DNA of 64,000 nt from a virus: the IMG/VR virus record IMGVR_UViG_3300048593_000672, positions 10,688-74,687 of that record. One strand, written 5' to 3'. The notes under the pieces were generated by a model. That model saw only the letters and a program-made list of their open reading frames with translations. It did not search any database and had not been told where the DNA came from. How positions within the stretch are numbered: position 1 is the first letter of the stretch; each line of letters starts with the position of its first letter. The translations under genes and the position numbers were made by a program. Below are positions 2,652-38,765 of this stretch, piece by piece.

Positions 2652-2663
2652 CAGGACAAAATC

Positions 2664-2846
2664 ATGCAATCAATCAACTTTGATCTCGGTGAACTATTAG
2701 TAATACAATTATTGATAGAAAGTATGCTTGAAAGTCAGCCAAACCCTCTTGTCTCAGTCGAAGACTTGATGTTGTCTATCGCATTACGATCTGCTCAAAC
2801 AAAAGTAAACGAAGCCATTAAAAAAGAAAATGAAGCCAATGCTTAA
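2664..2846 (+). CDS. Hypothetical protein
   Basis: AGGA RBS, operon spacing. Confidence 0.55.
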   Translation: MQSINFDLGELLVIQLLIESMLESQPNPLVSVEDLMLSIALRSAQTKVNEAIKKENEANA

Positions 2847-3034
2847 ACAACTAATCAACAAACTACTTTCCCTCGCTGGTATTAGTTTATGCAAATAATT
2901 AAATTTATCTTTTTTGTCTTTTGTGCCTACAGTTTAATCTTGTTTGGTTTAGGCTTTTACTATGGAGCAAGAGTCTATAAAATACAAAAACAAAAAGCTT
3001 GGCTTGAGTCTTTATTTTTACAATCATCAACAAA

Positions 3035-5929: not shown

Positions 5930-6199
5930 ATGAGCAATAAAGTTTTAAAGCCTGCAAAAGATTTAGTTGTTGGCGAAAAATTCAACTTTAATAATGGGGA
6001 AAAACCTTCATATGTGTGGGTAGTTGACAGCATAAAAAAAGACCCTCGATTCCCCAACGAAATAGAACCAATGGATGTGTGGGAAATCACTTATCACATG
6101 GAGCATCCTGATATTCAATCCCCCCGTCAGCATTTTGTCCACGCTGATAAAAGTGATCTTGTTTTAGCGATAGTTAACGCACCCCCGCCCGTAATTTAG
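5930..6199 (+). CDS. Hypothetical protein, convergent with tape measure
   Basis: ATG coupled to the upstream stop. Confidence 0.55.
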   Translation: MSNKVLKPAKDLVVGEKFNFNNGEKPSYVWVVDSIKKDPRFPNEIEPMDVWEITYHMEHPDIQSPRQHFVHADKSDLVLAIVNAPPPVI

Positions 6200-9100
6200 C
6201 CAACTGGCGATCGCGTTCAATCTGACTCATTGACTTGCCAAGATCATTCGTGTTAGCCACTTCAATCTTAATGGTTTGATTGAAGTTGTTAACAGTTCCC
6301 TCGCTGGTATTAGTCTGAGTAGTGTTGGGGATGTAGGAAACAGGGCCGCCCTTGGCAAAATTCTTAACATCCTTGGCCATACGTTCTGACCAGTCTTTAT
6401 AGTTGCGGTAGTCGCTGGCTTCGTTTGCAGAAATCACATACTCGTCAGCATTAAGGACGGCCAGGATGGGCCGCTTACCACCCGACTGCGACCTCTCCCG
6501 ATTCATTGCTTGACTAATGCCTTCTACCAGTCCCCCACCCGCATAATTATCAATCTTGAGGGGGTCAACGGGGCCGCCGTCGGCAAAGTTGAACGCATGA
6601 CTAATCATTCCTGTAAAGCCGCCCGATAAGCTGTCAGCTATTGATTGACCCGCACTGGCATTACCAGCGTTAAACAGATTGCCAAAAATATCACTGCCAG
6701 CATTGATAAAGCTACCGCCGCCGCTAACTGTTAAAGCACCAGCAAAAGCAGATAGGGCTGTAGTCGCTTCTGTCAGTCCCAAAATAAAACCGGCCATGGC
6801 GGGGTCAGTGGAAGTAATACCAGCGAGGAAAATGTTATCCATTGCTTGGCTGGTATTAGTCGTTGATTCCGTCAGGCTAGTAAATGCACTACTCAAATCA
6901 ATTGTGTCGGGTAAAGCTTGACCTGTTGTTAATGTATTGCTTAAGTCAAAAGGCACAATGTTGTTGGCCGCTATGCTTGCCCCCCGCTCACCTAGTCGCG
7001 TAATTACATGGGGATAAAATTCTTTGTTATCCAGACCGAGCATTGGCCCAACCCATTCAGCGATCGCATTTTGGAAGGGTTTGATAGCTAACTGCTCTAA
7101 CATCATCCCCAAAACAAGATCCTTGACTTTGTTGAGCGACTCCCCTAGTCCCTTAGACTCTAGGATCGCGCTACGCAGCCCCGAACTAAACTCTTTTAGA
7201 CCTGGGATAGCGTCAACAAATGATCGCTTAATATTTAACTCACTAATCTCAGCCTGAAACCGCCGCATTTCACTAGCCTGTTGAGGCGAGTAAGCACCAT
7301 CCCGAATCTGCTTCTCTAAATCAACTCTGGCTTGAGCCGCTTGCATCCGAGCATTAATAATCGCACTGGGGTCAATTAACGTTCCCATTCCCCAATCATT
7401 CTGCGCCCCAACGTCATAACGGGTTTTGTAGAGGTCAGCTTGAATTTTGGCATAACCCTGTTTAGATGCCATAATTTTATCGAGTCGCAACCAGGCTTCA
7501 GTGGCTCGTTTAGTGGGTTCTTCTAACGCAGCCATCGCCTTGGATTGCCTGTCAATTTCTTCCCGACGAGCTTGCATAATGGGAATGCTGTCGGTATAAA
7601 GTTTTAAATTGCTTTGATAAACAGACATAGCTTGCAACTCTTGAGTAGTTGCTTGGCGACCAGCTTTCGTCAGTTCAGCTTGCTTGTCAGCTAAGGCTTG
7701 TGCCGCAACCGCCGCACCAATATAGGCATCATCCATCTGTCTGCCAAGATTCCGCAATTCATCATCAAAATCACGGTTCATCTGGCGGAATTGTACACTA
7801 ACTCCTTCTACAGCCAGGTTAATCTCATCAGCAGCCGTTTTATAGCCCTTGCTGTTAATGGCTAACTCACGATACTTGATATTGTTATCCTCAACTTTTC
7901 GACTCAAGTTAAGAGCCATATCTTGAAGGGATTGTAATTGCTGTTGGAAGGCATTGTTGAACTTGACCACCTCAAGATTGCCTTGCAGATCAAGCACAGC
8001 CCGATTGACCCCAATTGTCGCATTCTTAACATCATTAATCTGACCAGCCGTATTAGTTAAACTACTCGTATCTTGTACAGTGATTGGATTTTGATCTGTA
8101 ATTTGCTGTAAGCCGCTATAGTCATTAATTGCCCTTGGCTGGTATTTTGTAATAAATGGACTTTGTACGTTTGGCAGGACATTTCCCCCATTCATATCAA
8201 CTTGAGGCTCAAGTTGAGAAGGTTGATAGCCTGGGAGTGTTTGATATTTTTTAATGTTGGGGTTGACATTGGCATTGCTACTACCAATCCCCTTGGCCGC
8301 ATCAACTCTTGCCTGACTTTCCTTAAATTGTTTGGCAATTGCCTCAGTGCGTTTTTTCCAATCCTTCGACGACATCCTATCAATAAACTTAATGCCTTTT
8401 GACTCATAAAACTCATCAAGTTTAAAGGCTTCAGGATAAAGTTCTTTTTGATATTTGATAATATCTTCTAATGGCTTGCGGCTAATATTATTTGGATCGT
8501 TCAACTCAGCTTGACGTTTTCTTGCCTTCTCCTGTTCGATCCGTTTGGCCCGCGCAGCAGTAGTGGCATTAGTCTGGAAAATTGCAGATCCCATATCACT
8601 AATACCCTCACTGGCATCAGCGACTAGCCACTCTTTGGGGGCCGCCGATCTCATTTGATTGTATAAGATACCCCTTACTCTAGATAAAGACTTCAAGTAT
8701 TTAGATCCGTAGGCTGGATCTGTAGCATAGCGACCATAGCGACCCTTAAAGTCACGGTTGATAAAATCTTCAGGAGTGCTAAAGAAAAAGTCTTTTTTAA
8801 GTTTAATTGCTGCGTACTCTAAGCCCTGTCCGTAGGTTTTAAAGTGCTTGTTATTGCCAGCATCATCGTTGCCATAGTTCAGTGGGTTTTTAGTAAACTT
8901 CCCTCGTCCCTTGGTTCCAAAATGGCTTTCAATAAATGCTTGAGTTACTAAGGCATCAATGCTAACTCCTGACTTGGTAGCAGCATTTTTAAAATCCTCA
9001 ACTGTCATTTGAGAACCATACTGGTTCAGCAATCTTGCTAAGTTTTTCTCCCATCCCATCGATTGAGTAGTAGCAGCCTGCGCCGGAGCGGTCAAGATGT

Positions 9101-12100
9101 TTTGCGCTGGTACTTGTAGTTGATACGATGTTTTAACTTGCTTTGGTGCAGCAAGATTTAATCTCATCCCCCCGCCATACTTGCCCATCAGCCCGTTTAG
9201 TCCATTAACATCCCCAGGTGCGTAGTATTTAGTTGGTTGTACGACCGCACTTGGCTGACCAATCGGGACTGAGAACGGGACTCGTTCAACTACCGACTCA
9301 CCGTAGCGGGGATCGATATTAATACCAGCAGAGGGATTGTATGAGAGAGGGGCGGCTGGCAGTGAAGGGAGCTTGTTTTGATAGCCGCTATTGGGAGCTT
9401 CTTTCGTAATCCGGGTTATGATTTGCTCTAGCTCACGCCCTAACTTAATAGATGACGACTCCATCTGCATCATCATTGACCTAAACTGTTCATTGAGCCG
9501 GATGATGCTACGAGTGCGTTCCTCTTCGGCCCGCAGTTGTTTCTCCTGTTCATCCCGAATGCGCCGGAGAGTCGTCACATACTCTTGGCCAACCTGACGT
9601 TGTTTCTCATCAAGCGATCGCCCTTCCCCTTCCAAATTGCCGATATTCGCGAGGAAGTCAACAAAGATACTGGCAGTCTTTTTACCAATACTGTCGGGTT
9701 GGAAGCTGATGGATTCAACAGCCAGCGTAGCCTTAGCTTGTCTCAGTTTCTCGCTGGTGCTTTTAAGTTCATTCTGAGCGGCCAATAGTTGACCTTCCAA
9801 ATCAAACTGTAAATCAGCCCAAGCCTCCTGCAAACCGCGAGTCTCGATAAAGGCATTACGGGCTGAATCCTGCACAGACCAGCCAAAGTCACGGACTTGT
9901 TGTTGCCAACCAATCTCAGTCTCTAGCACAGAGCGGTTAAAGTCCTCTACCGATTGACCCAAGCCCCGATAATACTCTTCAGTGTTCTGTCCCGACTGCA
10001 TCACTGCAAACTCAGCTTTAGCTACAGCTTCATTAGCACTTGCTAGTTGTTTAGCTAACTCTACTGGGTCTTGGGAGTTATCCTTAAACAGTGCTTTAAC
10101 ATCTCTTAACTGACGTTTAGCTGTAGCCAAGTCATTGTAAGCAGAAAAAGCTTGAATATCTTGAGTGCCAATTTTGCCCTTACTAGCAGCTTGATACATC
10201 TCAATATTCGTGTTGCTAGCCGCAATCTGGGTGTTAGCTTGACGGATAGCATTGAGTCGTTGTTGCTGTAGCTTTTCAAGATCAATTTGAGCTTGTAAAA
10301 CTTTGCCCTCTAACTCATTCGCTTGCTGGTATTTTTCTTTAAACTTAATAGATTGCTCTAAGAAAGTTTTTAGTCCCCCGCTAATACCATCCCCAGATTC
10401 AACCAACGCCTTCATTGTCTCCACGCTGGTATTCATGATCATGTCTAGGGGGTCTTTATATTTCTCCCCACCACGACCTCGTAACTCAAGCCGGTTCATT
10501 GCATCCTGAGCGACACTTGGCTCTAGTCCATTTAAAGCAAAACCTTTAAATGTTTCAGCATCTTGTTTAACAGGCAATAATTCCCGTTTGGCAGTAGTTA
10601 AGTTATCTAAAGCTTGCTGGCGTTGTAAATCAATATCATCAAGTTTTTGATTAAGCCGAGCTTCAAGTAATTGATTATTACGACGACTTGCTAACCCCTG
10701 ATTGTATTCAGCGATATTAGCACCAGCAGAAGAAACTAATTGACTAGCTCCTTGTAAACCAGGAATCTTTTGGTTGATAGAACCAGTGTGCATTCTGATT
10801 GCTTCTAGCCTGACGTTGGTATCAGACATTAGCTTGGCAATGACTTCTAGCTTTGCCTCACGTGCTTGAGCGTCGGGATTCTTTTTGACTGTCTCCCTCA
10901 TAGCCTCATAAGCTTTATTCATCTGCTCTAAAGCAATCTGATTGCCAAAAGTTTCATTGACGGCTTTTTCTCGATCCCCCACCTTTACTGCCAACTCAGC
11001 ACTAAGGTTTTTAAACTCCTCACGGTTGTTACCACCCAATTTACTGTTATTAGCTAAACGAGTTCTGATAACAGCAATCTCTCGATCTAGCTGAGAAATA
11101 TCAGCTTTACCTTTTGCAAGGTTTTGGGGATTAGCGTAATTTGCATCCGCCTGTTCGATCAGTCTTTTGCCATAGCTAATACCCCTGTCAACTTGCTTGA
11201 GGTCTTCCATCAAATCCCGCCGATCATCCTTATCCATGCGAACGGATTTGTAGATATTGCCTTTTTCGTCTCGGTAGTCAATAACGATGTTATTTATGCC
11301 ACTATTTGGCGCACTTGGATCAAAGCCAAATGGATGGGTGTAGTTATTTAGAACACCACCAAAAACTCGTTGGGCAAAGTCGCCAACTCCAGTGATAGGT
11401 GTTGGATTGCTGCCACCAAGTCTTGTGTAAGTTGGATCATTTCGATCAACCTTATTGGGGTCTTTCATCTTGCCAGTCAACGTATTAGTAGCTTCCAGAT
11501 TATTAATCATCTGCTCTAATTCATCGTTAGTCTTTTTCAATTCCCCGTGATAGGACTGCCAAATTTTAGTTCCTTTATCAATCGCAAATCCAATAGCAGC
11601 AAAAGCAATTAGTTGGGGGGCGATCGCATATAAAGCACTTCCGATACCAGAAAGCGCACCAGCTGTAGCAGCTAAACCCCTTACCGCCACATTGCTAGAC
11701 GATCCACTGATAACCAGGTTCGTGTTTAGTTTGGCTAGTCCAGTATTTAAGCCATTGAGTATCCAGTTATTAGTCATAAACTCAAGCCCCAAAACCTTGA
11801 GCGCAATCGTTACAACTCTTGAGGCTGTTCCCGTATCCAGTAAAGCAAAGACAAATTTAGCCCCAAGCATCGTTACTAAAAGTCCCAGACTCGCCGTTAA
11901 TCCCGTCGCTACACTGTTAAGCGCATTCATCCCACCAACAGCTATATCCATTGCTGGCTTGCCAACTCCCAAGATTGTTTCTCCCATCCGACCCTGTAGT
12001 TTTTCCTGGGCGTTCTGGAATCGGGCGATACTACCGAGCGGCCCTTCCTTCACCGTATTAATCGGTAATGTTGCTTCGTAGGCTAGTTGTTTGGCCAAGG

Positions 12101-15100
12101 GTTGCAAGTCTGTTTCGGGAAACATCTTGCTATTTTTCATCTGGTTGGTTAACTGTTCATGGGTTAATCCCTGGGAACGAGCCATAGCCCCGATAGCTTG
12201 GGGTAGTACCTCCGCAAGCTGCGAACGTAGTTCCTCGGCCATTATTTCGCCTTTTCCGATCATCTGAACTACACTGAGGAACGCCCGTTGCTGTTCATCG
12301 GGCGTTGCACCCTGACCAACCAACGCAGCCGAGAACCCTTCAAAGATTTCTTGTACCTGGGGCGCAACGGTGGTGTTGGCGGCGGCGACTGTTAACTTAG
12401 TGAATGACTGAGCAGCAACCAACGCATTAGCTCCAATCTCATCAGCGTATTGGGCGATCTCCTTTAATTTACTGGCTGCATTAATGCTTGAGTCGTAAGT
12501 TAAAGCCGCTTTCATCCGTTCCAATTGCAGGGCGGTATCAATACCAGTGCGGGCAAAATCAACGAGCACCTGTTCGACCTGCTGAAAGCCCATGTACATC
12601 AACAGCCCACCAGCAAAGCCTTTGATGTTTTCAATGATGCGGGCAAGACCAGGCATTTTTTCTTCTAATGCCCCCATGATCCGACCTAAGCCACGAATGC
12701 CAGCACCAGCGGCACCGGCCCCCGCTTCAATTTCATCAAGAATGTTGTTAAACCATTCCCAAAATCCCTTATCGGCATTTTGAGGTGCTTGAGCAATCCC
12801 CGCAACCATATTGTTAGCACGACTATTAATAAAGTCTTTGGCATTATCGCCCATGCGCCGAGGTGCTAAATCATCAACAGTTAAACCACGACGAGGCGGC
12901 ACTGGATTGGGAGAAGCACCAGCAGGGGGAATAGGTGGTTTGCGGGGGGGTTGTCCATTGCCACCACCAACAGGAACGTGATTATAAAGTCCAGCCGCCA
13001 TAATGCGATTGGCTTCTGCAATTTGCCAGGCCTGACCTGTTAGGGGAGTAGAATCTCTCACTGGTCTTGTTGCACTTGTCTGTTGCTGTTGAATTTCCGA
13101 AACCCACAATTGAAGAGCATCACCCCATACGTCATCACCATGTAGCGGGGGGGACTGACTTGCAATCACCCTATTATTAGGAGGTAATGGTGGAGGGACA
13201 ATTCCTCTCGCTGGTGTTTGTGCCTCGGATAGAGGAGGTAGCGGTAGAAGATTAGATACCCTGTCTTGTGCAACAACAGCATTTAATTCTTTTTCATAAA
13301 TAAAGGAAACAGCCCTTTTATAACCAGTACTGTTAATATCCCTCCCGATATTGATGTTTTTAATATCGCGAAGATACAAGTTTTTAAGACCTAAAGCCTC
13401 TTCTTTGTAATTCTCAATATTTTTCCAACCCTCTTTTTCTAATTGGGGAACTGGCAAATCAAGCATCTCAATTGATTGGATAGCACCATCAATACCAATC
13501 TTGTAGCCTAAGACTAAATTCTCACCAATCTTGATAAAGACTTTACTGGGCGATTTTTCCCCCAGAACATCCATCGCGGTTGTGATAAGTTTTTTGCTGG
13601 TGTTGGCGATCGCAGCAATCGGCTCACCCTCCGAACCAGTAATACCAGCCGTCAGACCTTTATTGATGTTTAGACCGACTCGTTCCATCTTTCCATAATT
13701 TTCATCCCCTTCCATCTCTTTAAAGCCATATCCGGCCCAAAGCCTTTCGCTACGAGCATCTATTGGGGATGTACGAATTGTGTTGGAGCCGACTACACTA
13801 AACAATTCTTGCATCCACAAATCAAGTTGTTTGCGAAGGGCTGCACGAATAGCGGGGTCTTTAGTTGGTTTAAAATCTCCATTAACCATTAGATCGGATA
13901 GATACCAACCCATAGTCTTTGACACATAAGCGTGTAGATCTAGCTTTTGCCCTTCAACTACTGCACTTCTAGTAAACCTAGTTCCTACTTCGGGGGGTTG
14001 AATTTGACTGTCTTTTGTTGTCAACTCTATTCTTGGCATAGAGGATTCAATTGACAGCTTTTTGTTGATGTCAAGGCTGGCTTTTTTACCTGTAGCAATG
14101 ATTTTATCAAGATAAGAAAGTATATTTTTCCTGACAGAATCAAAGGGTAATGTATCTGTGTCAGAAGCATTTGGCAGCATACTCTCTGCCTCTAGAAATG
14201 CTTGTTTTGCTGGACTATCTTCAGTTTTGTTTACGACTCTTCTTTGAAAGCTTGAGTGATTAAAATCTTTAACGATACTACTGACATTCGCATCTTCCGC
14301 AAGTCCATAGTCAATCGCTCTTAGCTGCCCTTGTTTATCTATTAAAATATTGCCACCATGTAAGTCATTGTGTGCAATACCATTTTCTATTAAAGACTTT
14401 TTGAGTCGAATAACTTCTTTAAAGAAAGACTCTGGATACTTCCCGCCATCAGAAATATTATAAGCATCATTGGCAGTTTGCCCCCGAATCAGTTCCATTG
14501 CAATCGCAGCGTCACTAGAGCTATATCGCTTTGATCCCAAAACCCTTGGGCCAAGTCCAAGCTCTCCGGCCCTTCGAGATAGTTCTATTTCCTTGTCTGT
14601 TATTTGTCCATGTTTTAAGGCATATCCTCCCATATCATAGACAGTTCCATAAAGACCTTCCCCCAGTGTTTTTATCCCAGGAATAGTCTTAAATTCCCAT
14701 TTATGATCATATAATTCCTGTTCTGTAGGGATATTTATGGCACTTTCGTTTTTTTGTATCGGCTGCTTTGTTACTGTCCTTTGTTTGATACTATCCAAAG
14801 CAGCTTTATTCCCACCACCCCATTCATAATAAGTTTCAAGTGTCTCAGCTAAGTTGTCTGCAAAATTATGACCAAATTGCTTAGATTGGGCAAGTTCTCT
14901 TTTAACAATGCTTTCAATATCGCCAATAATCGCCGCCATTTCTTTCGGCACTTTCTGAGCAACTTGGCTAAAGTCTAAGCCTTGATCTAGTCCAGCAACA
15001 ATGTCTTGACCAATCTCTTTAAATACCAGCGAGGGAGAATTACTTTTGAGCGTCTTTTTACTACTAGTAATCATTTCCCGCAACATTTCAATCGTTGCGT

Positions 15101-18100
15101 CTTTCGGCAAATGACCCCGTTCCTGTAATGCTAATAAAATGCCATCAGGAATAGCGACACCCATCCCATGCGCTTTTTTGAGGATGTCTTTTGGATCAAC
15201 AAACTGGTCAAATTGACCTTTCCAACCGCCCAATATTTTGTTAGTTGAAACAAGACTACCTTTGCTGCTTAATGCTTGGTCTGGCAGCCCTCCCAAAGAT
15301 TGTTTTTCTGCAATAAAGTTTTTAGAGTAGTTGGCTATACTACTAATACGTTCAACGTCAATAATGTCATTAATGATCCTAATTTGATCGTTAATATTTT
15401 TGCGATTAGTTTTTAATGAATCAATTAACTGCTTAAGCTTAACTTCTGGCGAGTCTTCCCTTGCTGGTGCTAGTGCGTAAGCATCCCCACGACTGGGAGG
15501 TAGGGGTGATAAAACTGTCGTTGCAGGGGGTAGGGCATTCGTTTCTTTTGCCAGTAATTCAGCGTAAACGTGCTCAACTGGGCGGGGCATTAATCTGGGC
15601 AGGCTAGTTATAGCTTTGTTGCCAAAATTGCCGATTCCCGTTAACAGGTTGTAGGTCTTATCCTCAACAGCACTAGGCAATAATGCCAGTGGTTTTGCTA
15701 CTTGATTTAATGCAAATTGTCCTACTCCACTCGCGGTCCGACCACTCAGCAGATAAGTCAATATAGTTCCAGCCCCACCCAATGCAGCCGTTCCCGCATC
15801 ACCAATTCCAGAGCCTAAAGCCCCCATTCCTGGAATACGACTCAACCAACTAGCAGCAGTCGCGGCCCCACTCGTTAATCCTTCAGGCAATAATCCCGCA
15901 ATTCCACTACCGACAGCCCCAATTCCATGACTCAATAACGGTGTGACAACCCCGCTAGAGATAGCGTCCATTCCCGCCCCTAACAAAGGTAGATCGTGTC
16001 CCGCCATGCCTAAGGCGATCGCGGGGGAAATAGCTTGAGTTACCTTCTTAGCAGCTTGAAGATTTACTAATCCAAGGCTTACGACCTGAACAGTATCAAA
16101 AGCATATTTTTCTATTCCCTTAGCCACTCCGTAATGCTGTGATGCAATAGTGCCTAGCGATCGCATCATCTTGTTAAACAAGCTGACTTCTGGGGAAGCC
16201 AAAGCACCAGCAGGGGAAATGTCATTGGCTGGCTGTTGATCGTTTACGCCTGGGGGATTTACTTCAGAGGGATTACCACCACGACCAACCATATCCCGAT
16301 GAAAAGCAGCAAGTTCTCGATAAAGCATCTCTAAATACTTTTCGGCACCGCTTAAATTGCTTTCGCTGGTATTAGTAAAAGCTGACTCGACAGGGTTATT
16401 ATTTTCCGTTGCTGGTGTTTGGGACTCTACGGGATTATTTGCTTTTTCTGTTACGGTACGCGAAAGATTAGGCAACTCTCCAATCATTCTGACAAGCAAC
16501 GATGGGTCGGATGGGTTTCTAATGCTTTCGTCAGATGGGAGTCCGAGCGTATTTATTCTGGTAGCTCCAACGCCCTGCGATTGAAAAATGCCAGATAAAG
16601 AAAATTCATCGGTAGGAAAGATGGGAATATTTGCTTTTGTCTCTTCAGAAAGATTGCCTTTATTAGCAACAAACTCATCCATGACCGATTGCAAATACTC
16701 ATACATTTTGACAATTTGATCTTGATAAATACCAAATTGACTACCCTTCTCTTTAAACCACTTAATTGTTTCATGAGATAATTGCCGATTCAATCCTTTT
16801 ACAGCTTCAGGGTTTAAGTCCCTCGCAAAATAACCAGCAAGAGAAGAATCGCCTGACTTGAAAGCAGCCAAGTCTTGATTGGTTTGTTTTGCCTCTTCTT
16901 GATATTTTAAATAGCCGCCTAAGTCACTAGGGTTTTCAGGCATTTTAACGCCAACATCAGAAAGTCGTTTTGCTAATTCAACTTCTATTTCTTTGAAATA
17001 TTGGTTTATCAGGTCGTGTAACGCCTTACCACCAGTTCTTGTCAGTGTTACAGTCGCCGCACCATGCTCAAAAAAGCGAGTAATCAGTGATTCAACGTCA
17101 AAATTACCCCCCGCACTTTGACTTGTCTTAAAGCCTTTAAATGGAGAATTAAGGTCAAATTCACCTGTTTTCATCAATGATTTTAATTGTTCCCCAATCC
17201 CTATCAACTCATATAAATTACCCGTTGATTCCGCTATTCCCGCTTCTGTCTTTCGATTTAATCCAGTAGGACGTTCACTACCAATCGCATTGTAAAAAAT
17301 AGGGGGAAACGCAGGTTCCTTAAATAAATGTTTCCAGTCGTGAGCATCCGTCCCAGAAAGTCCTATTGTGTTTAAGAATGAAGCACCTGGCGCATTAAAT
17401 CCCCTCCCCAAACCAAGTCTATTACCAAATGTTAGGGGGTCGCCTTTAAGAATTGCTGATTGATAATTTTGGGGGATAACACCAGACAAGCCCAGTGTCG
17501 GATAAGACATTGCCAACGTATTTGTTTGCAAGCCCATGTATTGAGCAGTTCTGGCGTAAGACATTGCATCCATCCCGCCAGACATTGAATAGCCAACAAA
17601 ACGACCTTCTTTCCCCTGACTGTTAGCTGCTAAAGTATTTGCTAATGCTTGAGTTGCCGCTATCGATGTTGCCATTGGATTAATGGCAAATAACGCTTGT
17701 CTTGCCACATTCATTACCGTATTGGCAACATCCTTATCCCCCATCAGATCGGGGAGAATGGTCGAAAGTCCCTTCTTTATTAGTTCTTCTGCTGGTCTTT
17801 TTTCGCCTGGCAACGGTGCATCTGAGTTGGGATTTTCGACAGGAATAAAGCGAACGTTAGGAGCAAAAGGTTCAAGGGCCATTGCTATTTGACGACCACC
17901 TTGACCCCCCGCAAATTGACCTCCACCCCCTACACTTACTGCGCCACTGTAATTTTGTAAGTCAGGAAAATTGCCTTTTATTTGATCGTAAAGCTGCTGA
18001 GCTTGTTTGCTAGTTCGATAAGTCTGAATGCCTTGAATTAGCTTTAATAGTGGTTGAAATTCCGCAATAATGGGATTAATAACATTGTCAACTATCCCTT

Positions 18101-19076
18101 TTGGTTGGGCTAAATCTAGAAACTTATCTAGAGTCTGTAATTTAGAAGTTGTCCCCATTGAAGCTAAAGGACGATTTTCTATCGTGGCATAAATCTTTTT
18201 AAGCTCATTATCGCTTTGGATTATTTGATCGATAGCGGCAGCATTTGCTTGAGTCGCAATATCTCTCAGCTTATAGATTCGCTCCAAAGACTTTGCAATT
18301 CCTGATCGCGGTTTTGCGGCTTCTGTTGCTTTTTTAAAATCACCAGTGTCTAATAATTCTCCTAAAAAAGTCTCAAAATAATTATCGGTTCCCACTACAA
18401 AGTTATTAAAAGCTCTTACACCAGCTTTTACTTTTGCCGACGACTCTCTAACGCCACTCGTTGCAAATTCCCCCGCTAAAGTTCGACCAATTTCTTCAGC
18501 AAAACCAGTAGCAATTTTATTGACTGCTTGCCCTGCAATATTCATTGGAATGCGAATTGGCGCAGAAACTACATCAAAAGCAAAGCCAGCGATTTTAGAT
18601 AAAACTCCACCTGGCCGCAAGTGTGCAACTTCTTTAATAACGTCCCGAAAATCCTGATCTAACTGCTTACCGAGTCCCCTAATTTCACTTGCCAAAAGAC
18701 TATCTTGCCTTAAGCTATCAACAGAAATTTGATGCCGAATCGTCCCACTAAACGATCCCCCCGCCATCATGTCATTTTTAAGCACCCCCAACTCCCGCCG
18801 AAACTCCCGAACCTGATTAATACCAGCAGAGAGGGAAGTAGGGTCGTAAAGCGACTTAATGGGGATTGATGCTTCTTTCCGCAGTTCCCCAATATGCTTA
18901 ATTTTTTTGTCAATTAAATCGTTGAGTCCATGCAGTTGTTTGGTGTCAACGGGAATGGCGATCGCAGACTGACGCTTAAGTTTGCCCAGTTCATTGTCAA
19001 CTTGATACATCCGGCGATTGAAGTTATCAATCCGAGCGTCAATGTCAATATAGATCTGACCGCCATCAACTGCCAT
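6174..19076 (-). CDS. Giant tape measure protein (4300 aa) with hydrolase-like, kinase-like, GNAT-like and GH73 domains
   Basis: Follows tail chaperones; tape domain QMIGKGEIMAEELRSQLAE; SPS repeats; FADGG/FAKGG C-terminal motifs; enzyme motifs in findings. Confidence 0.93.
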   Translation of the reverse strand: MAVDGGQIYIDIDARIDNFNRRMYQVDNELGKLKRQSAIAIPVDTKQLHGLNDLIDKKIKHIGELRKEASIPIKSLYDPTSLSAGINQVREFRRELGVLKNDMMAGGSFSGTIRHQISVDSLRQDSLLASEIRGLGKQLDQDFRDVIKEVAHLRPGGVLSKIAGFAFDVVSAPIRIPMNIAGQAVNKIATGFAEEIGRTLAGEFATSGVRESSAKVKAGVRAFNNFVVGTDNYFETFLGELLDTGDFKKATEAAKPRSGIAKSLERIYKLRDIATQANAAAIDQIIQSDNELKKIYATIENRPLASMGTTSKLQTLDKFLDLAQPKGIVDNVINPIIAEFQPLLKLIQGIQTYRTSKQAQQLYDQIKGNFPDLQNYSGAVSVGGGGQFAGGQGGRQIAMALEPFAPNVRFIPVENPNSDAPLPGEKRPAEELIKKGLSTILPDLMGDKDVANTVMNVARQALFAINPMATSIAATQALANTLAANSQGKEGRFVGYSMSGGMDAMSYARTAQYMGLQTNTLAMSYPTLGLSGVIPQNYQSAILKGDPLTFGNRLGLGRGFNAPGASFLNTIGLSGTDAHDWKHLFKEPAFPPIFYNAIGSERPTGLNRKTEAGIAESTGNLYELIGIGEQLKSLMKTGEFDLNSPFKGFKTSQSAGGNFDVESLITRFFEHGAATVTLTRTGGKALHDLINQYFKEIEVELAKRLSDVGVKMPENPSDLGGYLKYQEEAKQTNQDLAAFKSGDSSLAGYFARDLNPEAVKGLNRQLSHETIKWFKEKGSQFGIYQDQIVKMYEYLQSVMDEFVANKGNLSEETKANIPIFPTDEFSLSGIFQSQGVGATRINTLGLPSDESIRNPSDPSLLVRMIGELPNLSRTVTEKANNPVESQTPATENNNPVESAFTNTSESNLSGAEKYLEMLYRELAAFHRDMVGRGGNPSEVNPPGVNDQQPANDISPAGALASPEVSLFNKMMRSLGTIASQHYGVAKGIEKYAFDTVQVVSLGLVNLQAAKKVTQAISPAIALGMAGHDLPLLGAGMDAISSGVVTPLLSHGIGAVGSGIAGLLPEGLTSGAATAASWLSRIPGMGALGSGIGDAGTAALGGAGTILTYLLSGRTASGVGQFALNQVAKPLALLPSAVEDKTYNLLTGIGNFGNKAITSLPRLMPRPVEHVYAELLAKETNALPPATTVLSPLPPSRGDAYALAPAREDSPEVKLKQLIDSLKTNRKNINDQIRIINDIIDVERISSIANYSKNFIAEKQSLGGLPDQALSSKGSLVSTNKILGGWKGQFDQFVDPKDILKKAHGMGVAIPDGILLALQERGHLPKDATIEMLREMITSSKKTLKSNSPSLVFKEIGQDIVAGLDQGLDFSQVAQKVPKEMAAIIGDIESIVKRELAQSKQFGHNFADNLAETLETYYEWGGGNKAALDSIKQRTVTKQPIQKNESAINIPTEQELYDHKWEFKTIPGIKTLGEGLYGTVYDMGGYALKHGQITDKEIELSRRAGELGLGPRVLGSKRYSSSDAAIAMELIRGQTANDAYNISDGGKYPESFFKEVIRLKKSLIENGIAHNDLHGGNILIDKQGQLRAIDYGLAEDANVSSIVKDFNHSSFQRRVVNKTEDSPAKQAFLEAESMLPNASDTDTLPFDSVRKNILSYLDKIIATGKKASLDINKKLSIESSMPRIELTTKDSQIQPPEVGTRFTRSAVVEGQKLDLHAYVSKTMGWYLSDLMVNGDFKPTKDPAIRAALRKQLDLWMQELFSVVGSNTIRTSPIDARSERLWAGYGFKEMEGDENYGKMERVGLNINKGLTAGITGSEGEPIAAIANTSKKLITTAMDVLGEKSPSKVFIKIGENLVLGYKIGIDGAIQSIEMLDLPVPQLEKEGWKNIENYKEEALGLKNLYLRDIKNINIGRDINSTGYKRAVSFIYEKELNAVVAQDRVSNLLPLPPLSEAQTPARGIVPPPLPPNNRVIASQSPPLHGDDVWGDALQLWVSEIQQQQTSATRPVRDSTPLTGQAWQIAEANRIMAAGLYNHVPVGGGNGQPPRKPPIPPAGASPNPVPPRRGLTVDDLAPRRMGDNAKDFINSRANNMVAGIAQAPQNADKGFWEWFNNILDEIEAGAGAAGAGIRGLGRIMGALEEKMPGLARIIENIKGFAGGLLMYMGFQQVEQVLVDFARTGIDTALQLERMKAALTYDSSINAASKLKEIAQYADEIGANALVAAQSFTKLTVAAANTTVAPQVQEIFEGFSAALVGQGATPDEQQRAFLSVVQMIGKGEIMAEELRSQLAEVLPQAIGAMARSQGLTHEQLTNQMKNSKMFPETDLQPLAKQLAYEATLPINTVKEGPLGSIARFQNAQEKLQGRMGETILGVGKPAMDIAVGGMNALNSVATGLTASLGLLVTMLGAKFVFALLDTGTASRVVTIALKVLGLEFMTNNWILNGLNTGLAKLNTNLVISGSSSNVAVRGLAATAGALSGIGSALYAIAPQLIAFAAIGFAIDKGTKIWQSYHGELKKTNDELEQMINNLEATNTLTGKMKDPNKVDRNDPTYTRLGGSNPTPITGVGDFAQRVFGGVLNNYTHPFGFDPSAPNSGINNIVIDYRDEKGNIYKSVRMDKDDRRDLMEDLKQVDRGISYGKRLIEQADANYANPQNLAKGKADISQLDREIAVIRTRLANNSKLGGNNREEFKNLSAELAVKVGDREKAVNETFGNQIALEQMNKAYEAMRETVKKNPDAQAREAKLEVIAKLMSDTNVRLEAIRMHTGSINQKIPGLQGASQLVSSAGANIAEYNQGLASRRNNQLLEARLNQKLDDIDLQRQQALDNLTTAKRELLPVKQDAETFKGFALNGLEPSVAQDAMNRLELRGRGGEKYKDPLDMIMNTSVETMKALVESGDGISGGLKTFLEQSIKFKEKYQQANELEGKVLQAQIDLEKLQQQRLNAIRQANTQIAASNTNIEMYQAASKGKIGTQDIQAFSAYNDLATAKRQLRDVKALFKDNSQDPVELAKQLASANEAVAKAEFAVMQSGQNTEEYYRGLGQSVEDFNRSVLETEIGWQQQVRDFGWSVQDSARNAFIETRGLQEAWADLQFDLEGQLLAAQNELKSTSEKLRQAKATLAVESISFQPDSIGKKTASIFVDFLANIGNLEGEGRSLDEKQRQVGQEYVTTLRRIRDEQEKQLRAEEERTRSIIRLNEQFRSMMMQMESSSIKLGRELEQIITRITKEAPNSGYQNKLPSLPAAPLSYNPSAGINIDPRYGESVVERVPFSVPIGQPSAVVQPTKYYAPGDVNGLNGLMGKYGGGMRLNLAAPKQVKTSYQLQVPAQNILTAPAQAATTQSMGWEKNLARLLNQYGSQMTVEDFKNAATKSGVSIDALVTQAFIESHFGTKGRGKFTKNPLNYGNDDAGNNKHFKTYGQGLEYAAIKLKKDFFFSTPEDFINRDFKGRYGRYATDPAYGSKYLKSLSRVRGILYNQMRSAAPKEWLVADASEGISDMGSAIFQTNATTAARAKRIEQEKARKRQAELNDPNNISRKPLEDIIKYQKELYPEAFKLDEFYESKGIKFIDRMSSKDWKKRTEAIAKQFKESQARVDAAKGIGSSNANVNPNIKKYQTLPGYQPSQLEPQVDMNGGNVLPNVQSPFITKYQPRAINDYSGLQQITDQNPITVQDTSSLTNTAGQINDVKNATIGVNRAVLDLQGNLEVVKFNNAFQQQLQSLQDMALNLSRKVEDNNIKYRELAINSKGYKTAADEINLAVEGVSVQFRQMNRDFDDELRNLGRQMDDAYIGAAVAAQALADKQAELTKAGRQATTQELQAMSVYQSNLKLYTDSIPIMQARREEIDRQSKAMAALEEPTKRATEAWLRLDKIMASKQGYAKIQADLYKTRYDVGAQNDWGMGTLIDPSAIINARMQAAQARVDLEKQIRDGAYSPQQASEMRRFQAEISELNIKRSFVDAIPGLKEFSSGLRSAILESKGLGESLNKVKDLVLGMMLEQLAIKPFQNAIAEWVGPMLGLDNKEFYPHVITRLGERGASIAANNIVPFDLSNTLTTGQALPDTIDLSSAFTSLTESTTNTSQAMDNIFLAGITSTDPAMAGFILGLTEATTALSAFAGALTVSGGGSFINAGSDIFGNLFNAGNASAGQSIADSLSGGFTGMISHAFNFADGGPVDPLKIDNYAGGGLVEGISQAMNRERSQSGGKRPILAVLNADEYVISANEASDYRNYKDWSERMAKDVKNFAKGGPVSYIPNTTQTNTSEGTVNNFNQTIKIEVANTNDLGKSMSQIERDRQLAKLRAGVR

Positions 19077-19078
19077 AA

Positions 19079-19534
19079 CTAACTACTCTCAAACGATTTA
19101 ATAATTGCCCAGTCGTCGGGCCGAACATGGGCGATGACCTGGGCGATGTCCGAGGGCAACAAACCAAGCTTACTTGCATTACTAACAATCTTAGCTGTTT
19201 CCGTGTCAATCGGCTCTTTACCCTTCTCTGGAAATTGAAAGGGTAAAAACTTAGCCGCATCGGGATACTCAACGGAAAAGTGATCGGGATTATTGTGAAC
19301 CTGAGTCCAGTAAGTAAAGTGAGCGACTAGCCTGGCCACCGTCATATTCTGGGCGTTAATCTCTTCGGCTCTTGACCGATTAATCAAAATCCACTTCTCG
19401 TATAACAACCAATCAGGCAGTTCTTCAAAATCGGATAGGGGTTGGCCCCAATTTAGCCAATCCCCCAGTATCCGATCCCAATCTACCTGTTTGGCATTTA
19501 GGATTTCCCTGATTTTTTCACAGGCTCCTTTCCC
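19079..19534 (-). CDS. Tail assembly chaperone GT extension (-1 frame)
   Basis: Frame open from slippery GGGAAAG through the 19079..19408 ORF. Confidence 0.75.
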   Translation of the reverse strand, partial: GKGACEKIREILNAKQVDWDRILGDWLNWGQPLSDFEELPDWLLYEKWILINRSRAEEINAQNMTVARLVAHFTYWTQVHNNPDHFSVEYPDAAKFLPFQFPEKGKEPIDTETAKIVSNASKLGLLPSDIAQVIAHVRPDDWAIIKSFESS

Positions 19535-20445
19535 CCCTCACTTTTTTCTGCTGGTGCTTCTACCCTGATGGCTGTCACTTGGTATGTTACGCCTTCTTCT
19601 AAGCTCAACCTTTGTTCTCCACAAAGGCTAAAAGAAGAGTCTGCTTTCATCTTGGCTGTAATCACATTGTCGGTATCTAGCCACCCCGTTTTACCCTGAT
19701 TTTCCTTATTCACAAATTCAGTAAACAGAGTCCGAACTAAACCTGGGGATAAATTTTTGACATTTTCAGCCGTGACTTTAAATGTTTTGCGCTCTGTATC
19801 AGACAAGTCTTTTAAAGCCACAACCCGCAAGGGAGAGGATAAAATACCAGCCAGCAACTCACAGTTATAGTTGGTTTGAGCTTCGGCATTCTGATCATTC
19901 AATTCACCTAGCTTAGTAAAGTCATCGCCTAACTTTTCGACAATTAACAGGTTGCGTTTTTTCTCTTCCTCGATTGCATCATCAAGGGATTTAGCATCAC
20001 TAAGACCCAAGCTTGTAGCAATAGCCGTAAGAGCATTTACAGCCGTTTTATTTTGCTCGTCATTGTCTTTATCTAGGAGTTGGGCAAGGTCAAGTAACCG
20101 GCTTAGGGTTTGCTTTTTAGTGCCACTACCCAATTCCACCGTTACGACTCGATGGATTTCATCTTCGGAGATTTGATACTTACGGGAATTACTGCCAACA
20201 ATGGCATAGTATTCTTTCTGAATCCTCTTAATTTCTTCTGATGCAGCCCCAACCGCTTCACGTTCACGACGAGTTAATCCCTTGAGCTTGTAAAGATAAA
20301 TACCAATCTCCCCGTCACTGTTTTTTTCTAGTAGCTTGTCTAAAATCGGTTCTTCGGGGGAATCAAACGAATGGCAAAGATCGAACTCTTCAATGGGGAT
20401 AAATACAGCTTCTTTTGCTTCCTTTAAATCCTTAAAAATGCCCAT
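19498..20445 (-). CDS. Tail assembly chaperone G
   Basis: Between major tail and tape measure; ends EGGKE.. with G GGA AAG. Confidence 0.75.
   Translation of the reverse strand: MGIFKDLKEAKEAVFIPIEEFDLCHSFDSPEEPILDKLLEKNSDGEIGIYLYKLKGLTRREREAVGAASEEIKRIQKEYYAIVGSNSRKYQISEDEIHRVVTVELGSGTKKQTLSRLLDLAQLLDKDNDEQNKTAVNALTAIATSLGLSDAKSLDDAIEEEKKRNLLIVEKLGDDFTKLGELNDQNAEAQTNYNCELLAGILSSPLRVVALKDLSDTERKTFKVTAENVKNLSPGLVRTLFTEFVNKENQGKTGWLDTDNVITAKMKADSSFSLCGEQRLSLEEGVTYQVTAIRVEAPAEKSEGGKEPVKKSGKS
19528..19534 (-). promoter_or_regulatory. -1 ribosomal frameshift heptamer GGGAAAG
   Basis: Same heptamer and phase as lambda G/GT; shift joins the two ORFs with no stop. Confidence 0.85.
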
Positions 20446-20491
20446 AAATAATTAATCACTATAGTTGTCAGCTTTATTATGGCATACAAAC

Positions 20492-20746
20492 TTAGCTTGA
20501 CAACAACTTTAGTTGAAAACTCTCTGGGCTATACAACACCCGATGATTCTTCTGGTAAATTAATTGGGGTGGCAACTCAACCAAGATTGGCACTTCATTA
20601 ATACCAGCAAGAAGATTGATTGTGTCGGGTAGGTAGGGAGCAAAATAGCCCAGGCGATAAAAAAGAGTCTGGTCAACCACTTTACAGTTGGCTAACCAGA
20701 CTAAATCCAAATCGTTCCAATGAGAGCGCAAAAGATTAAGCCGCAT
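20492..20746 (-). CDS. Hypothetical protein
   Basis: ATG at 20746 overlaps the major tail stop. Confidence 0.5.
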   Translation of the reverse strand: MRLNLLRSHWNDLDLVWLANCKVVDQTLFYRLGYFAPYLPDTINLLAGINEVPILVELPPQLIYQKNHRVLYSPESFQLKLLSS

Positions 20747-21440
20747 TTTGGGGGATCTTTTTCCATGTACCGTTAACATGCAACGTGACGTTGTATTGAT
20801 TAAAGGCGTTGTTGGAACGTTGTTCAGACTCACTGAATCGGCAGTTAGCAATACGACCGCCTCGACCTTGGGCATTAAGAATCATGACTCGAAGCATCTT
20901 GCCAGCTTCAATCGCATCTTGCATTAACTTCTTGCCAGGATCACCGTAAATGTCGGGGCCGGAAGTTTGTCCAGAAGACATAACACCAGAAACAGCCTTG
21001 GCAATCTCTAAAGTGTTAAATGCTTGATCTTGATATTCCTGGGATTGGTTATCGGTGTTGGCAGACTTGGCAGAGAAAAAGGGGACAAAGCATTCAACAA
21101 TAGCTGCCGAGTTGTCTGCGATCGCTACGGCTGCGGGATAGATGGGGATTGTGGTAGCGTTTGCGGCAGTTTTGGTCTTAACGCGAACAACTTTAGAAAC
21201 GTTACTAACAACAAAAACAATGGGCTGACCTTCATACAAGATTTTGGTGCAACCAGTATCAACAGTGATAGTCGTGTCATCAACGTCAACAGCCGCAGCT
21301 AAAGTGAGCGTTTCAATGCCTGGGATAACACCGGCGGGAGCTTCTTCATCAAAAGGAGTGGGAGAGACAAAGATTTGAGTACCCTGACCAGGTGTGTAAA
21401 GGCTGGTATCGTCGAGGGTAGTGTAATTATCACCGGCCAT
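20736..21440 (-). CDS. Major tail protein
   Basis: Position, size, tube-like pattern (GQGTQIFVS...DPG..YNVTLHVNG). Confidence 0.75.
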   Translation of the reverse strand: MAGDNYTTLDDTSLYTPGQGTQIFVSPTPFDEEAPAGVIPGIETLTLAAAVDVDDTTITVDTGCTKILYEGQPIVFVVSNVSKVVRVKTKTAANATTIPIYPAAVAIADNSAAIVECFVPFFSAKSANTDNQSQEYQDQAFNTLEIAKAVSGVMSSGQTSGPDIYGDPGKKLMQDAIEAGKMLRVMILNAQGRGGRIANCRFSESEQRSNNAFNQYNVTLHVNGTWKKIPQNAA

Positions 21441-21445
21441 AAAAA

Positions 21446-21901
21446 TTACCTATAAGAATTTGTTTGCGTCACAATTAAATTCATTCTAGCCTGTGCAGGA
21501 TAAATTGCACCATCTAGTTCAGCGTATGGTCTAATTACTGGATTTTGATGAATAACGAAACTACTCTCAGATTGAATTTTGCTAATAGCGATCGCCAACA
21601 CCCCGTCATAATTCCACTGTCTCAGGATTAGCTCAAACAAAAGATGATAAGACTTTAAAGCCAACAACCCCCCATCATTCATTTTTGGCTCAAGATTTAA
21701 GATTGCCTCAATGCCAGAGCCATCAACGATCTTATAGTTTTGGGGAAGGTCGGGGGGACTTATCCACACGGCTGGTATTTGTCCCTGTTCAACCTGATAC
21801 AGCCCCAGGTCATCAGCTAACAAAAGTCTAATAGCATCTGAGACATTGAGGGCAAAAGTGTCTAGTTGAGTTTGGGTGATGGACATAATAAATACCAGCA
21901 A
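21446..21901 (-). CDS. Tail terminator/completion protein
   Basis: Synteny upstream of major tail. Confidence 0.55.
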   Translation of the reverse strand: MLVFIMSITQTQLDTFALNVSDAIRLLLADDLGLYQVEQGQIPAVWISPPDLPQNYKIVDGSGIEAILNLEPKMNDGGLLALKSYHLLFELILRQWNYDGVLAIAISKIQSESSFVIHQNPVIRPYAELDGAIYPAQARMNLIVTQTNSYR

Positions 21902-21906
21902 AAAGA

Positions 21907-22386: not shown

Positions 22387-22434
22387 TTGACAACTAAGTT
22401 TGCTATAGTATTATCAATCATAACATTTTACGGT

Positions 22435-38749: not shown

Positions 38750-38765
38750 GTTAAGTTTTAAATCA

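Follow-up and report, generated by a model that had tools for sequence, protein, structure and literature searches.

We analysed a window of 64,000 nucleotides (positions 10,688 to 74,687 of IMGVR_UViG_3300048593_000672), to which all coordinates refer. The source record is a 74.7-kb viral contig of IMG/VR that derives from lake-water metagenomes; it is about 94% complete. On the (-) strand, which carries all features described here, positions 6174..19076 form one unbroken open reading frame of 4,300 aa that accounts for 17% of the record. Contigs of four independent lake-water runs match this gene at ≥99% identity without indels or joints, and the frame holds the only match to the tape measure family TMP_3 in the whole record. 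Upstream lie six tail genes (19079..22386 (-)), among them a tail completion/Neck1-like gene (21907-22386 (-), phrog_5); by tblastn the six are syntenic with a giant tape measure protein (TMP) in 10 related viral contigs (from L003-L014). The window also encodes DUF2460, the hub and a megatron-like protein. As proposed in the initial annotation, the 4,300-aa protein is thus a genuine tail TMP. Its bearer is a freshwater siphovirus, not yet cultured, that has a genome of about 75-80 kb and a tail tip of the RcGTA type. The cyanobacterial prophage setting that had been assumed is not shown by this record, a viral contig from lake-water metagenomes.

The C-terminal half (aa ~2100-4300) has the make-up of an ordinary TMP: core, membrane-like segments, helix-prone ruler, swappable cell-wall hydrolase and conserved C-terminus. 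The TMP_3 core, the tape domain recognised at the outset, occupies aa 2180-2315 (12132..12539; E 1.3e-10, exceeding the Pfam cut-off) and is also matched by NCBIfam (TIGR02675), PHROGs and four solved TMPs. About 2,180 aa precede it, close to the 2,100 first estimated. It is followed by two hydrophobic, transmembrane-like segments (aa 2386-2500; 11577..11921), the only part of the TMP with Kyte-Doolittle windows ≥1.5, and by a charged ruler region (aa 2600-3300; 9177..11279) that is 95-100% identical in the compared protein P0002 and, judged by composition only, may form a coiled coil. A GH73 glucosaminidase had been noticed behind the ruler, and here aa 3360-3463, scanned alone, scored 30.7 bits with Pfam Glucosaminidase (cut-off 30.2). 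The domain (aa 3342-3469; 8670..9053) bears the motifs FIESHFG, with E3383, and YATDPAY and fills a muralytic slot in which P0002 and P0003 are just 10-63% identical to it. Elsewhere in the family, Beta-lactamase2, M23, DUF6782 or lysozyme domains occur, of which only the Beta-lactamase2 domain of P0011 was placed, at a comparable position after the core. The helical, Gly-rich tail-tip end (aa 3480-4300; 6177..8639) is kept in the family and holds a single divergent island (aa 3660-3840).

The first 2,100 aa are likewise of TMP type: they begin with helices and contain two SPS modules besides a hydrolase and a kinase. By phmmer, the N-terminal helical region (aa 1-330; 18087..19076) is conserved among family members and, weakly, among further giant TMPs; it is modelled as long helices of low pLDDT. 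Both SPS repeats of the initial annotation were found. The first unit (aa 1205-1425; 14802..15464), with SPSLVFKEIG at aa 1347-1356, is 79-92% identical in P0002 and P0003 and is covered by PHROG TMP families. The second (aa 1790-1880; 13437..13709), with SPSKVFIKIG at aa 1842-1851, was located by tblastn in 420 phage records, the matches listed being almost all under TMP-annotated genes. The SPS modules are therefore a generic TMP motif, and the front half is itself TMP and not a fused neighbouring gene. Ahead of the first unit lies a low-charge Gly/Ala/Ser-rich segment (aa 960-1200; 15477..16199) that is conserved with P0014 (phmmer 312 bits) and P0002. The predicted Pro-rich linker is present at aa 1900-2080 (12837..13379), with 11-15 Pro per 100 aa at aa ~1900-2100, and is poorly conserved: identity to P0002 is 18-57% in the linker versus 93-100% in its flanks.

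The suspected hydrolase-like domain proved to have an alpha/beta-hydrolase (ABH) fold. It is part of a conserved N-module (aa 210-830; 16587..18449; model pLDDT 70-95) made of a helical scaffold, the ABH and a helical domain. The ABH core (aa 360-602; 17271..17999) shows a Gly-rich loop (aa 382-395), the nucleophile elbow GYSMSGG with Ser497, and Asp546 and His579. In the model, Ser497 sits at the strand-to-helix elbow and Asp546 and His579 after the next strands, and none of the three residues varies among 28 sequences of 24-45% identity. No Pfam family matched the hydrolase even at E≤10; the best 50 structural matches of aa 360-602 were all ABH (VIA-align, Z 8.4-10.3). Such matches, here as for the kinase below, indicate fold, not activity. 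The closest neighbours were esterases, lipases, cutinases, phospholipases and acyl thioesterases, with no peptidase among the top matches.

A kinase-like domain had also been proposed, and the cassette at aa 1425-1685 (14022..14804) agrees with this in fold (Z 12.6-15.2; Foldseek E ~1e-8 to protein kinases) and in a Pfam ABC1 match at aa ~1462-1672 (31.9 bits, cut-off 22.9). All catalytic motifs are present (GEGLYG at 1472, K1488, E1496, HNDLHGGN at 1569-1576 and DYG at 1589-1591) and align with the family kinase, of which this copy is a divergent member (31.9 bits to the family kinase HMM) away from the usual position. Because its best-scoring models are of the atypical ABC1/UbiB, Kdo and RIO types, lipid or sugar substrates are possible. 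Together with the esterase-, lipase- and thioesterase-like hydrolase, this does not bear out the 'protein-modifying' activity first ascribed to the front half. Nor could the third proposed enzyme, a GNAT-like domain, be substantiated. The segment concerned (aa 1686-1800; 13677..14021) is 92-98% conserved in P0002 and P0003, gave no Pfam match even at E≤10 and no PDB sequence match, reached an hhalign probability of 0.2% against a small GNAT profile and was modelled by AlphaFold2 with a pLDDT of 22-47. Enzyme folds among the supposed cargo are thus those of the hydrolase and the kinase.

The protein is a member of a metagenomic family of giant TMPs that is defined by the ABH with its invariant Ser-Asp-His triad. 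The hydrolase N-module was found in 27 representative clusters, all of giant TMPs and always at the same N-terminal position. Family TMPs range from 1,925 to 5,797 aa; the kinase directly follows the hydrolase in 22 of 28 proteins, and its complete motifs are kept in at least 16 members. Cysteine is absent from all 4,300 aa and occurs 10 times in 127,677 aa of the compared proteins, nearly all of them giant TMPs, versus 1.34% in the other open reading frames of the window. Near-identical relatives, with a backbone identity of 93-100%, differ in discrete islands: N-module, kinase cassette, linker and muralytic slot. The alignment with P0003, for instance, goes straight from query aa 1426 to aa 1687, so that the kinase cassette is absent at this site. 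Variable cargo in related TMPs, as anticipated, was therefore observed. That enzyme cassettes are traded while the backbone hardly changes suggests that they face host factors which vary.

Catalytic domains that act at infection are familiar from other TMPs: mycobacteriophage TM4 (motif 3), T5 (the C-terminal peptidase of Pb2) and staphylococcal phages carry cell-wall hydrolases in theirs, and the GH73 slot is of the same kind. Those enzymes are all muralytic and located in the rear half, whereas the hydrolase and kinase precede the TMP core and show no obvious function at the cell wall. The closest precedent is gp96 of Thermus phage P23-45, a TMP of 5,002 aa whose N-terminus is a virion RNA polymerase (Chaban et al., 2024; PMC10770324). 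This polymerase is present in virions within the full-size TMP, is proposed to act as DNA enters and transcribes pre-early genes; gp96-type TMPs also occur in P74-26, G20c and TSP4 (PMC10770324). Like the protein studied here, gp96 is a giant TMP that starts with a non-muralytic enzyme (N-terminal ~1,100-1,200 aa), followed by TMP-typical membrane and peptidase domains. The cargo differs, being a two-barrel RNA polymerase in gp96 but an ABH and a kinase here, with no DxDxD motif anywhere in the 4,300 aa. No sequence relation was seen outside the TMP core, and the predicted cargo here is modular and swapped between close relatives. The notion of an undescribed system is not supported as it stands: TMP-fused virion enzymes have been known since 2024, but the literature searched yielded no TMP cargo of hydrolase plus kinase.

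Polyvalent proteins of phages and conjugative elements are a further comparison. These large, multi-domain proteins are presumed to reach the recipient cell together with the DNA and combine kinases, GNATs, peptidases and cell-wall enzymes variably, for which cassette-like recombination was proposed (Iyer et al., 2017; PMC5512222). As carriers, that paper names MuF-type head proteins, N4-like polymerases and conjugation proteins, and it mentions tape measure proteins nowhere (0 occurrences). In its kinase clade the catalytic His is separated from the Asp by an insert (PMC5512222); here the two are contiguous (HND). An ABH as a constant module is not among the protein-modifying classes listed in the excerpted text of that paper. 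The N4 virion RNA polymerase (~3,500 aa; PMC13434306) is ejected from the capsid and, likewise a giant enzyme, has to thread a narrow tail channel in order to enter the host along with the DNA. It is no TMP, however, and is stored in the head, N4 being a phage with a short tail.

We are inclined, with some reserve, to read the protein as a genuine TMP whose swappable front-half hydrolase and kinase would be delivered ahead of the DNA and be active before phage expression. Given an intact-looking serine hydrolase and an enzyme of protein-kinase fold in the front half, the tail probably brings ready-made enzymes to the host. The scheme is drawn by analogy with 80alpha and P23-45. Three TMP copies would occupy the tail lumen, C-termini at the tip and N-termini beneath the DNA end, as the 80alpha preprint describes for the TMP N-termini of that phage. 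Upon infection, the C-terminal half would leave first, cut peptidoglycan and form a channel. The enzyme-bearing N-terminal half would follow just ahead of the DNA, probably partly unfolded, so that hydrolase and kinase could act at or inside the cell prior to any phage gene expression, and related phages would trade such cassettes on a near-constant backbone. In a siphovirus tail lumen, space is tight for three copies of folded 25-kDa domains, which would have to be unfolded or staggered for storage. The two enzymes could equally work in the producing cell before assembly instead. From the original claim of N-terminal enzyme delivery, we retain two of the three enzymes, both with an enzyme fold and conserved catalytic residues, the cassette swapping and the gp96 precedent (PMC10770324); the GNAT, the protein-modifying role and cleavage as a polyprotein find no support here, and injection stays a proposal.

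The hydrolase and kinase might also act on the envelope alongside GH73 during tail-tip penetration, rather than in cytoplasmic takeover or anti-defence, with lipids, lipoproteins, LPS or O-acyl groups on glycans as possible targets. The lipase- and esterase-like neighbours of the hydrolase and the non-protein ABC1/UbiB and Kdo kinase models fit this idea, as do the low-charge Gly/Ala-rich segment between hydrolase and SPS unit and the kinase of the independent giant TMP P0006, which scores above the Pfam threshold for the family of the LPS kinases Kdo/WaaP. To our knowledge, all enzymes described inside TMPs are envelope-directed, bar the P23-45 polymerase. We nevertheless consider this unlikely, since a kinase requires ATP, which is missing outside the cytoplasm, the top structural matches of this one are protein kinases, and the N-terminal half, last out and beside the DNA in the 80alpha topology, is at the wrong end for the first envelope contact.

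It is quite improbable that the protein serves mainly as a ruler, with 4,300 aa setting a very long tail of about 0.6 micrometre and the domains being spacers, assembly aids or relics that do nothing in the next host. The 5,002-residue TMP of P23-45 does define an extraordinarily long tail, that of the related P74-26 measures nearly 1 micrometre, and the length range of the family is wide. Relics, however, would lose the catalytic triad and the Gly-rich loop, both invariant across the 28 sequences, and would not be expected to keep full kinase motifs; length tuning alone does not predict discrete cassette replacement. We give just as little credence to an N-terminal half that works late in the infected cell or as an assembly chaperone and is cut off at the Pro-rich linker, leaving mature virions with the C-terminal TMP only. 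Lambda gpH is a processed TMP, and some alpha/beta hydrolases are peptidases, which makes self-processing conceivable; the linker separating the halves is poorly conserved, and TMPs are often fragmented or processed (80alpha preprint). Yet the helical, TMP-like first ~210 aa and the SPS modules are as expected of a ruler part, cysteine avoidance extends through the enzyme domains, the hydrolase lacks peptidases among its top matches, and P23-45, the only tested case, keeps its N-terminal enzyme in the full-size virion TMP.

Phage-encoded enzymes of protein-kinase fold also exist outside the tail ruler as separate genes. One is the free-standing kinase gp0.7 of T7. Another is the APH-like Ser/Thr kinase of Synechococcus phage S-CBWM1, which alone among 50,697 phage records matched the whole N-terminal half used as query (aa 1471-1682 at 25.9% identity, E 3e-11).

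The gene at 6174-19076 (minus strand) is a single uninterrupted open reading frame of 4,300 aa and accounts for 17% of the record, a linear IMG/VR viral contig of 74,687 bp that is 94% complete by CheckV and of which the window represents bases 10688-74687. The record originates from lake-water metagenomes, and eight sequencing runs each contain half or more of the words sampled from it; none of the runs listed is an RNA dataset. Nearly all parts of the gene are covered by short contigs from four independent runs with at least 99% identity and without any indel or joint, and assembly chimerism is therefore unlikely. The encoded tape measure protein (giant TMP, to which all aa numbers refer) is the sole TMP_3 match across the 74.7-kb record. 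The uninterrupted frame, the contig support from several runs and this unique match show that the 4,300-aa tape measure frame described in the initial annotation is real.

The rear half of the protein (aa ~2100-4300) is an ordinary TMP. TMP_3 (PF20155) matched aa 2180-2315 with 41.8 bits (cut-off 41) and TIGR02675 scored 32.7 bits on this core stretch against a cut-off of 21.35, placing the tape domain that had been recognised by eye above both thresholds. The same stretch was also matched by four solved TMP chains (E 2e-6 to 2e-11) and by several TMP PHROGs. Hydropathy peaks occur in the giant TMP only at aa 2386-2416 and 2477-2500, after the core. The approximately 700 aa between positions 2600 and 3300, judged by composition alone, would form a charged, helix-prone ruler. 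Further downstream, scanning of aa 3330-3500 alone returned the Pfam Glucosaminidase family at aa 3360-3463 with 30.7 bits (cut-off 30.2). This region contains FIESHFG (including E3383) and YATDPAY, the catalytic motifs of GH73, and the muralytic domain anticipated there is confirmed at the sequence level.

The front half of the giant TMP contains an N-terminal module (N-module, aa 210-830) that comprises a helical scaffold, an alpha/beta hydrolase and a helical domain. When aa 1-860 were modelled with AlphaFold2 from an alignment of 28 sequences, the prediction was confident over this range. A Foldseek-independent structure search (VIA) against 48,161 PDB chains placed alpha/beta hydrolases in all top 50 positions (Z 8.4-10.3, aa ~360-602), including dienelactone hydrolases, CALB, acyl-protein thioesterases, TesA, cutinases and phospholipases. 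The fold was resolved by this search; a Foldseek run on the complete 860-aa model yielded weak rows only. The model displays a central sheet, a nucleophile at a strand-turn-helix elbow and the order nucleophile-acid-His: Ser497 starts the helix after strand 490-496, Asp546 follows strand 538-543 and His579 follows strand 565-568. No variation occurs in any of the 28 sequences (24-45% identity) at these three residues or at G385, G391 and G393 of a Gly-rich loop. The predicted nucleophile elbow reads G-Y-S-M-S, compared to the textbook G-x-S-x-G. Aa 360-602 matched no described Pfam family at E ≤ 10. The hydrolase-like domain suspected from the sequence is thus backed by a modelled alpha/beta-hydrolase fold with an invariant Ser497-Asp546-His579 triad. 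The fold, the invariant residues and the absence of a Pfam match lead us to propose that it is probably an active member of a new serine hydrolase family, so far confined to giant TMPs.

Indeed, a phmmer search with aa 330-850 against 1.84 billion representative proteins retrieved 27 proteins, all of them giant TMPs with a length of 1,925-5,797 aa except for one fragment of 476 aa. Apart from this fragment, the N-module match was found at the same N-terminal position in every one of them. Among viral structures in BFVD, the first part of one 'tape measure domain protein' of an uncultured phage resembled the N-module model (E 1e-8), and relatives of the N-module are therefore present but unannotated in public databases. 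Two unnamed viral proteins in BFVD, A0A2H4PAQ8 and A0A2H4PAQ7, displayed a weak structural likeness to the same model (E 2e-3 to 7e-3).

The second predicted enzyme is a kinase, encoded within a cassette that spans aa 1425-1685. All catalytic motifs are present and align with those of the relatives' kinases: GEGLYG (1472-1477), K1488, E1496, H1569-N-D1571 with N1576, and D1589-Y-G. The model was confident over aa ~1467-1664 (pLDDT 60-90) and adopted a bilobal kinase fold, with Z-scores of 12.6-15.2 against TBK1, TTBK1, PKR, CK1, Rio1/2, Ark1, YabT and PknB and Foldseek E-values of ~1e-8 against protein kinases. Complete motifs and modelled fold together argue for the kinase-like domain of the initial annotation. 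At the profile level ABC1 scored above its cut-off (31.9 versus 22.9 bits) and Pkinase just below (29.5 versus 31.7 bits), while APH, Bud32 and Kdo kinase profiles gave weak scores. The domain measures ~210 aa and in this compactness resembles the kinases Rio, Bud32 and Ark1. Homologue searches limited by word and length found no stand-alone relatives of the kinase alone or of the piece spanning kinase, GNAT-like segment and SPS unit, and no close relative of the kinase cassette was found in viral contigs.

We found that the enzymes are arranged as a mosaic. An HMM built from the relatives' kinase and run on the 28 N-module proteins placed this kinase immediately behind the N-module in 22 of them. 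The giant TMP has no kinase of this type at that position; its own, more divergent kinase is instead located between two SPS units (aa 1205-1425 and 1790-1880). One near relative (P0003) cleanly lacks the kinase cassette, joining query aa 1426 to 1687. Another (P0002) is 93-100% identical to the giant TMP across most of aa 2100-4300, with divergent islands in the Pro-rich linker at aa 1900-2080 (18-57%), the GH73 slot (10-63%), aa 3660-3840 (37-68%) and the whole N-module (44%). The replacement in the GH73 slot of P0002 had no PDB or Pfam identity, and no close relative of P0002 was found in viral contigs. DNA direct repeats at the cassette borders were found at chance level only. Other family members carry Beta-lactamase2, M23, DUF6782 or phage-lysozyme domains; in P0011, a serine beta-lactamase/PBP-like Beta-lactamase2 domain (aa 3569-3765, E 4.5e-25) occupies a post-core position comparable to that of GH73. 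An unrelated TMP of 3,057 aa (P0006) lacks the hydrolase module and harbours a kinase ahead of its core (aa 600-740), which scores above the Pfam threshold for LPS kinases of the Kdo/WaaP family, as well as an SLT/lysozyme domain behind it (aa 2217-2266). Pre-core enzymes thus extend to giant TMPs beyond this family. We also considered a protein of 2,365 aa that starts at query aa 2094 (P0004) as a short TMP without the N-terminal half and rejected it, as it is merely ended by a contig border.

The remaining segments of the front half were characterised as well. A tblastn search with the second SPS unit matched 420 phage records and, among the matches listed, almost all lie under genes annotated as TMP. 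SPS units are therefore a generic TMP element rather than special fences around the cargo, which in turn marks the front half itself as tape-measure sequence. The segment between kinase and second SPS unit (aa 1686-1800) had been read as a GNAT-like acetyltransferase domain. It matched no Pfam or NCBIfam family, gave no match at E ≤ 10 when scanned alone and had no sequence match in the PDB. A small hhalign test against a weak five-sequence Acetyltransf_1 profile returned a probability of 0.2%, and the AlphaFold2 model of aa 1686-1900, for which only two near-identical homologues were available, was of low confidence (pLDDT 22-47). The GNAT assignment is hence unsupported by any of these approaches. 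The segment is 92-98% conserved in P0002 and P0003 and, on these sequence grounds, probably represents a real domain. A low-charge, Gly/Ala/Ser-rich segment (aa 960-1200; 15477-16199) separates the hydrolase module from the first SPS unit and is strongly conserved with the compared protein P0014 (312 bits). This segment may be membrane-active; glycine-zipper enrichment in aa 1000-1130 was not clearly above that of the remainder of the giant TMP.

We read the giant TMP as belonging to the TMP-fused kind of virion enzymes, with a conserved pair of hydrolase and kinase plus swappable cassettes as its predicted cargo. The closest known case is gp96 of the Thermus phage P23-45, a TMP of 5,002 aa with an N-terminal RNA polymerase. 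This polymerase is contained in virions, still joined to the full-size TMP, and carries out the transcription of pre-early genes (PMC10770324). In both cases the N-terminal part of a full-length TMP houses an enzyme other than a muralytic one. In contrast to gp96, the enzymes preceding the core here are a hydrolase and a kinase within one ORF, and the two-barrel RNA polymerase with its DxDxD motif is absent, as the giant TMP contains no D.D.D string and matches no polymerase family. A survey of polyvalent proteins described kinases, GNATs and peptidases in giant proteins that are delivered together with the DNA and never mentions tape measures (Iyer et al., 2017; PMC5512222). The polyvalent-protein kinase clade is characterised by an insert between His and Asp and by loss of the C-terminal subdomain. 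The HND motif is contiguous in the giant TMP kinase, which therefore lacks the first feature, whereas its short C-lobe agrees with the second. Full-text searches of the literature on tape measures that bear a kinase, a hydrolase or ejected cargo turned up no account of a TMP combining hydrolase and kinase.

How might such enzymes reach their place of action? In phage 80alpha, the tail is filled by three copies of the TMP, whose N-termini are bound to the tail completion protein immediately beneath the DNA end and whose C-termini lie at the tip. By analogy with 80alpha and P23-45, we lean towards a sequence in which the rear half would leave first, cut peptidoglycan and form a channel, and the front half with hydrolase and kinase would follow just ahead of the DNA. 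The giant TMP contains no cysteine in its 4,300 aa, embedded enzyme domains included, and the compared proteins (P0002-P0036, nearly all giant TMPs) contain 10 in 127,677 aa versus 1.34% in the window's other ORFs. This lack would fit passage or storage in a non-native state.

Two enzymes directed at the cell envelope would be consistent with the esterases and lipases found as structural neighbours of the hydrolase and with the affinity of the kinase to atypical kinases. We regard such a role as unlikely, since ATP is absent outside the cytoplasm and the N-terminal half sits at the DNA end. That the entire protein serves purely as ruler for a tail of ~0.6 micrometre, the length expected for 4,300 aa at the usual 1.5 angstrom per residue, is highly improbable in view of the invariant catalytic residues. 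Equally little probability is assigned to removal of the N-terminal half before maturation or to activity only in the producing cell.

The idea that the N-terminal half delivers protein-modifying enzymes with the DNA thus stood in part: the predicted hydrolase and kinase folds with their conserved catalytic residues and the cassette mosaic speak for it, and its GNAT component dropped out. Extending delivery ahead of the DNA to the whole family, we tentatively speculate that giant TMPs of uncultured aquatic siphoviruses might be a general effector-delivery platform, the long-tailed counterpart of polyvalent proteins, that combines a constant ruler with a conserved serine hydrolase and a kinase. 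The enzymes would enter the cytoplasm just ahead of the DNA, either TMP-fused or released. Through deacylation and phosphorylation they would shut down host defence or redirect the host, and near-identical phages would swap cassettes as part of an arms race. We consider this broad version doubtful. If the front half does store ready-made enzymes, long phage tails would be protein-delivery devices besides DNA conduits, and siphoviruses would possess a pre-transcription route to host takeover or counter-defence that is so far known only for head-packaged proteins and the polymerase of one thermophilic phage. The family offers a conserved, mutable catalytic triad and a kinase for testing, and the naturally swapped cassettes, set in a backbone of 93-100% identity, represent built-in controls. 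The substrate of the family-less alpha/beta hydrolase could reveal what phages need in the first seconds of infection.

Regarding the host, no evidence was found for the cyanobacterial prophage setting that had been assumed initially. TerL shares at most 40% identity with that of any cultured phage, and a single genome match for a relative was obtained, on a 10.6-kb contig that had been binned into a Methylomonas MAG. A single small binned contig is too weak to name Methylomonas as host. At the record end, a tRNA-Cys gene (63877-63948, minus strand) is adjoined by a weak match to tyrosine integrases (62759-63805, minus strand; E 9e-5, below cut-off), and the two may form an integration module. 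Genes for tRNA-Met and tRNA-Gly lie at 38677-38838.

The six genes upstream of the giant TMP gene, including a tail-completion/Neck1-like gene, are syntenic with it in ten related viral contigs, a setting that suits a tape measure gene. Two overlapping ORFs in different frames (20492-20875 and 20736-21440, both minus strand) are located upstream of the TMP; by frame count, a +1 and not a -1 shift would be needed to pass from 20492-20875 into the ORF at 19498-20445. The tail-tip genes of the window are of RcGTA type and comprise DUF2460, a phiJL001-gp84/BR0599 hub and Phage-tail_3 with Rcc01698_C. The genes for the Dit-like DUF2460 protein and the hub (phiJL001 gp84_N plus BR0599) are located far from the TMP at 22387-24081 and 3592-4374 on the plus strand, opposite to the rest of the tail operon, and no tail-tip gene directly follows the TMP. 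Elsewhere in the window, 527-2494 (plus strand) encodes an SF2 helicase (ResIII and Helicase_C) and 51749-53284 (minus strand) a 511-aa protein that carries, behind 250 unassigned N-terminal aa, an N6/N4 DNA methylase domain in its C-terminal half.
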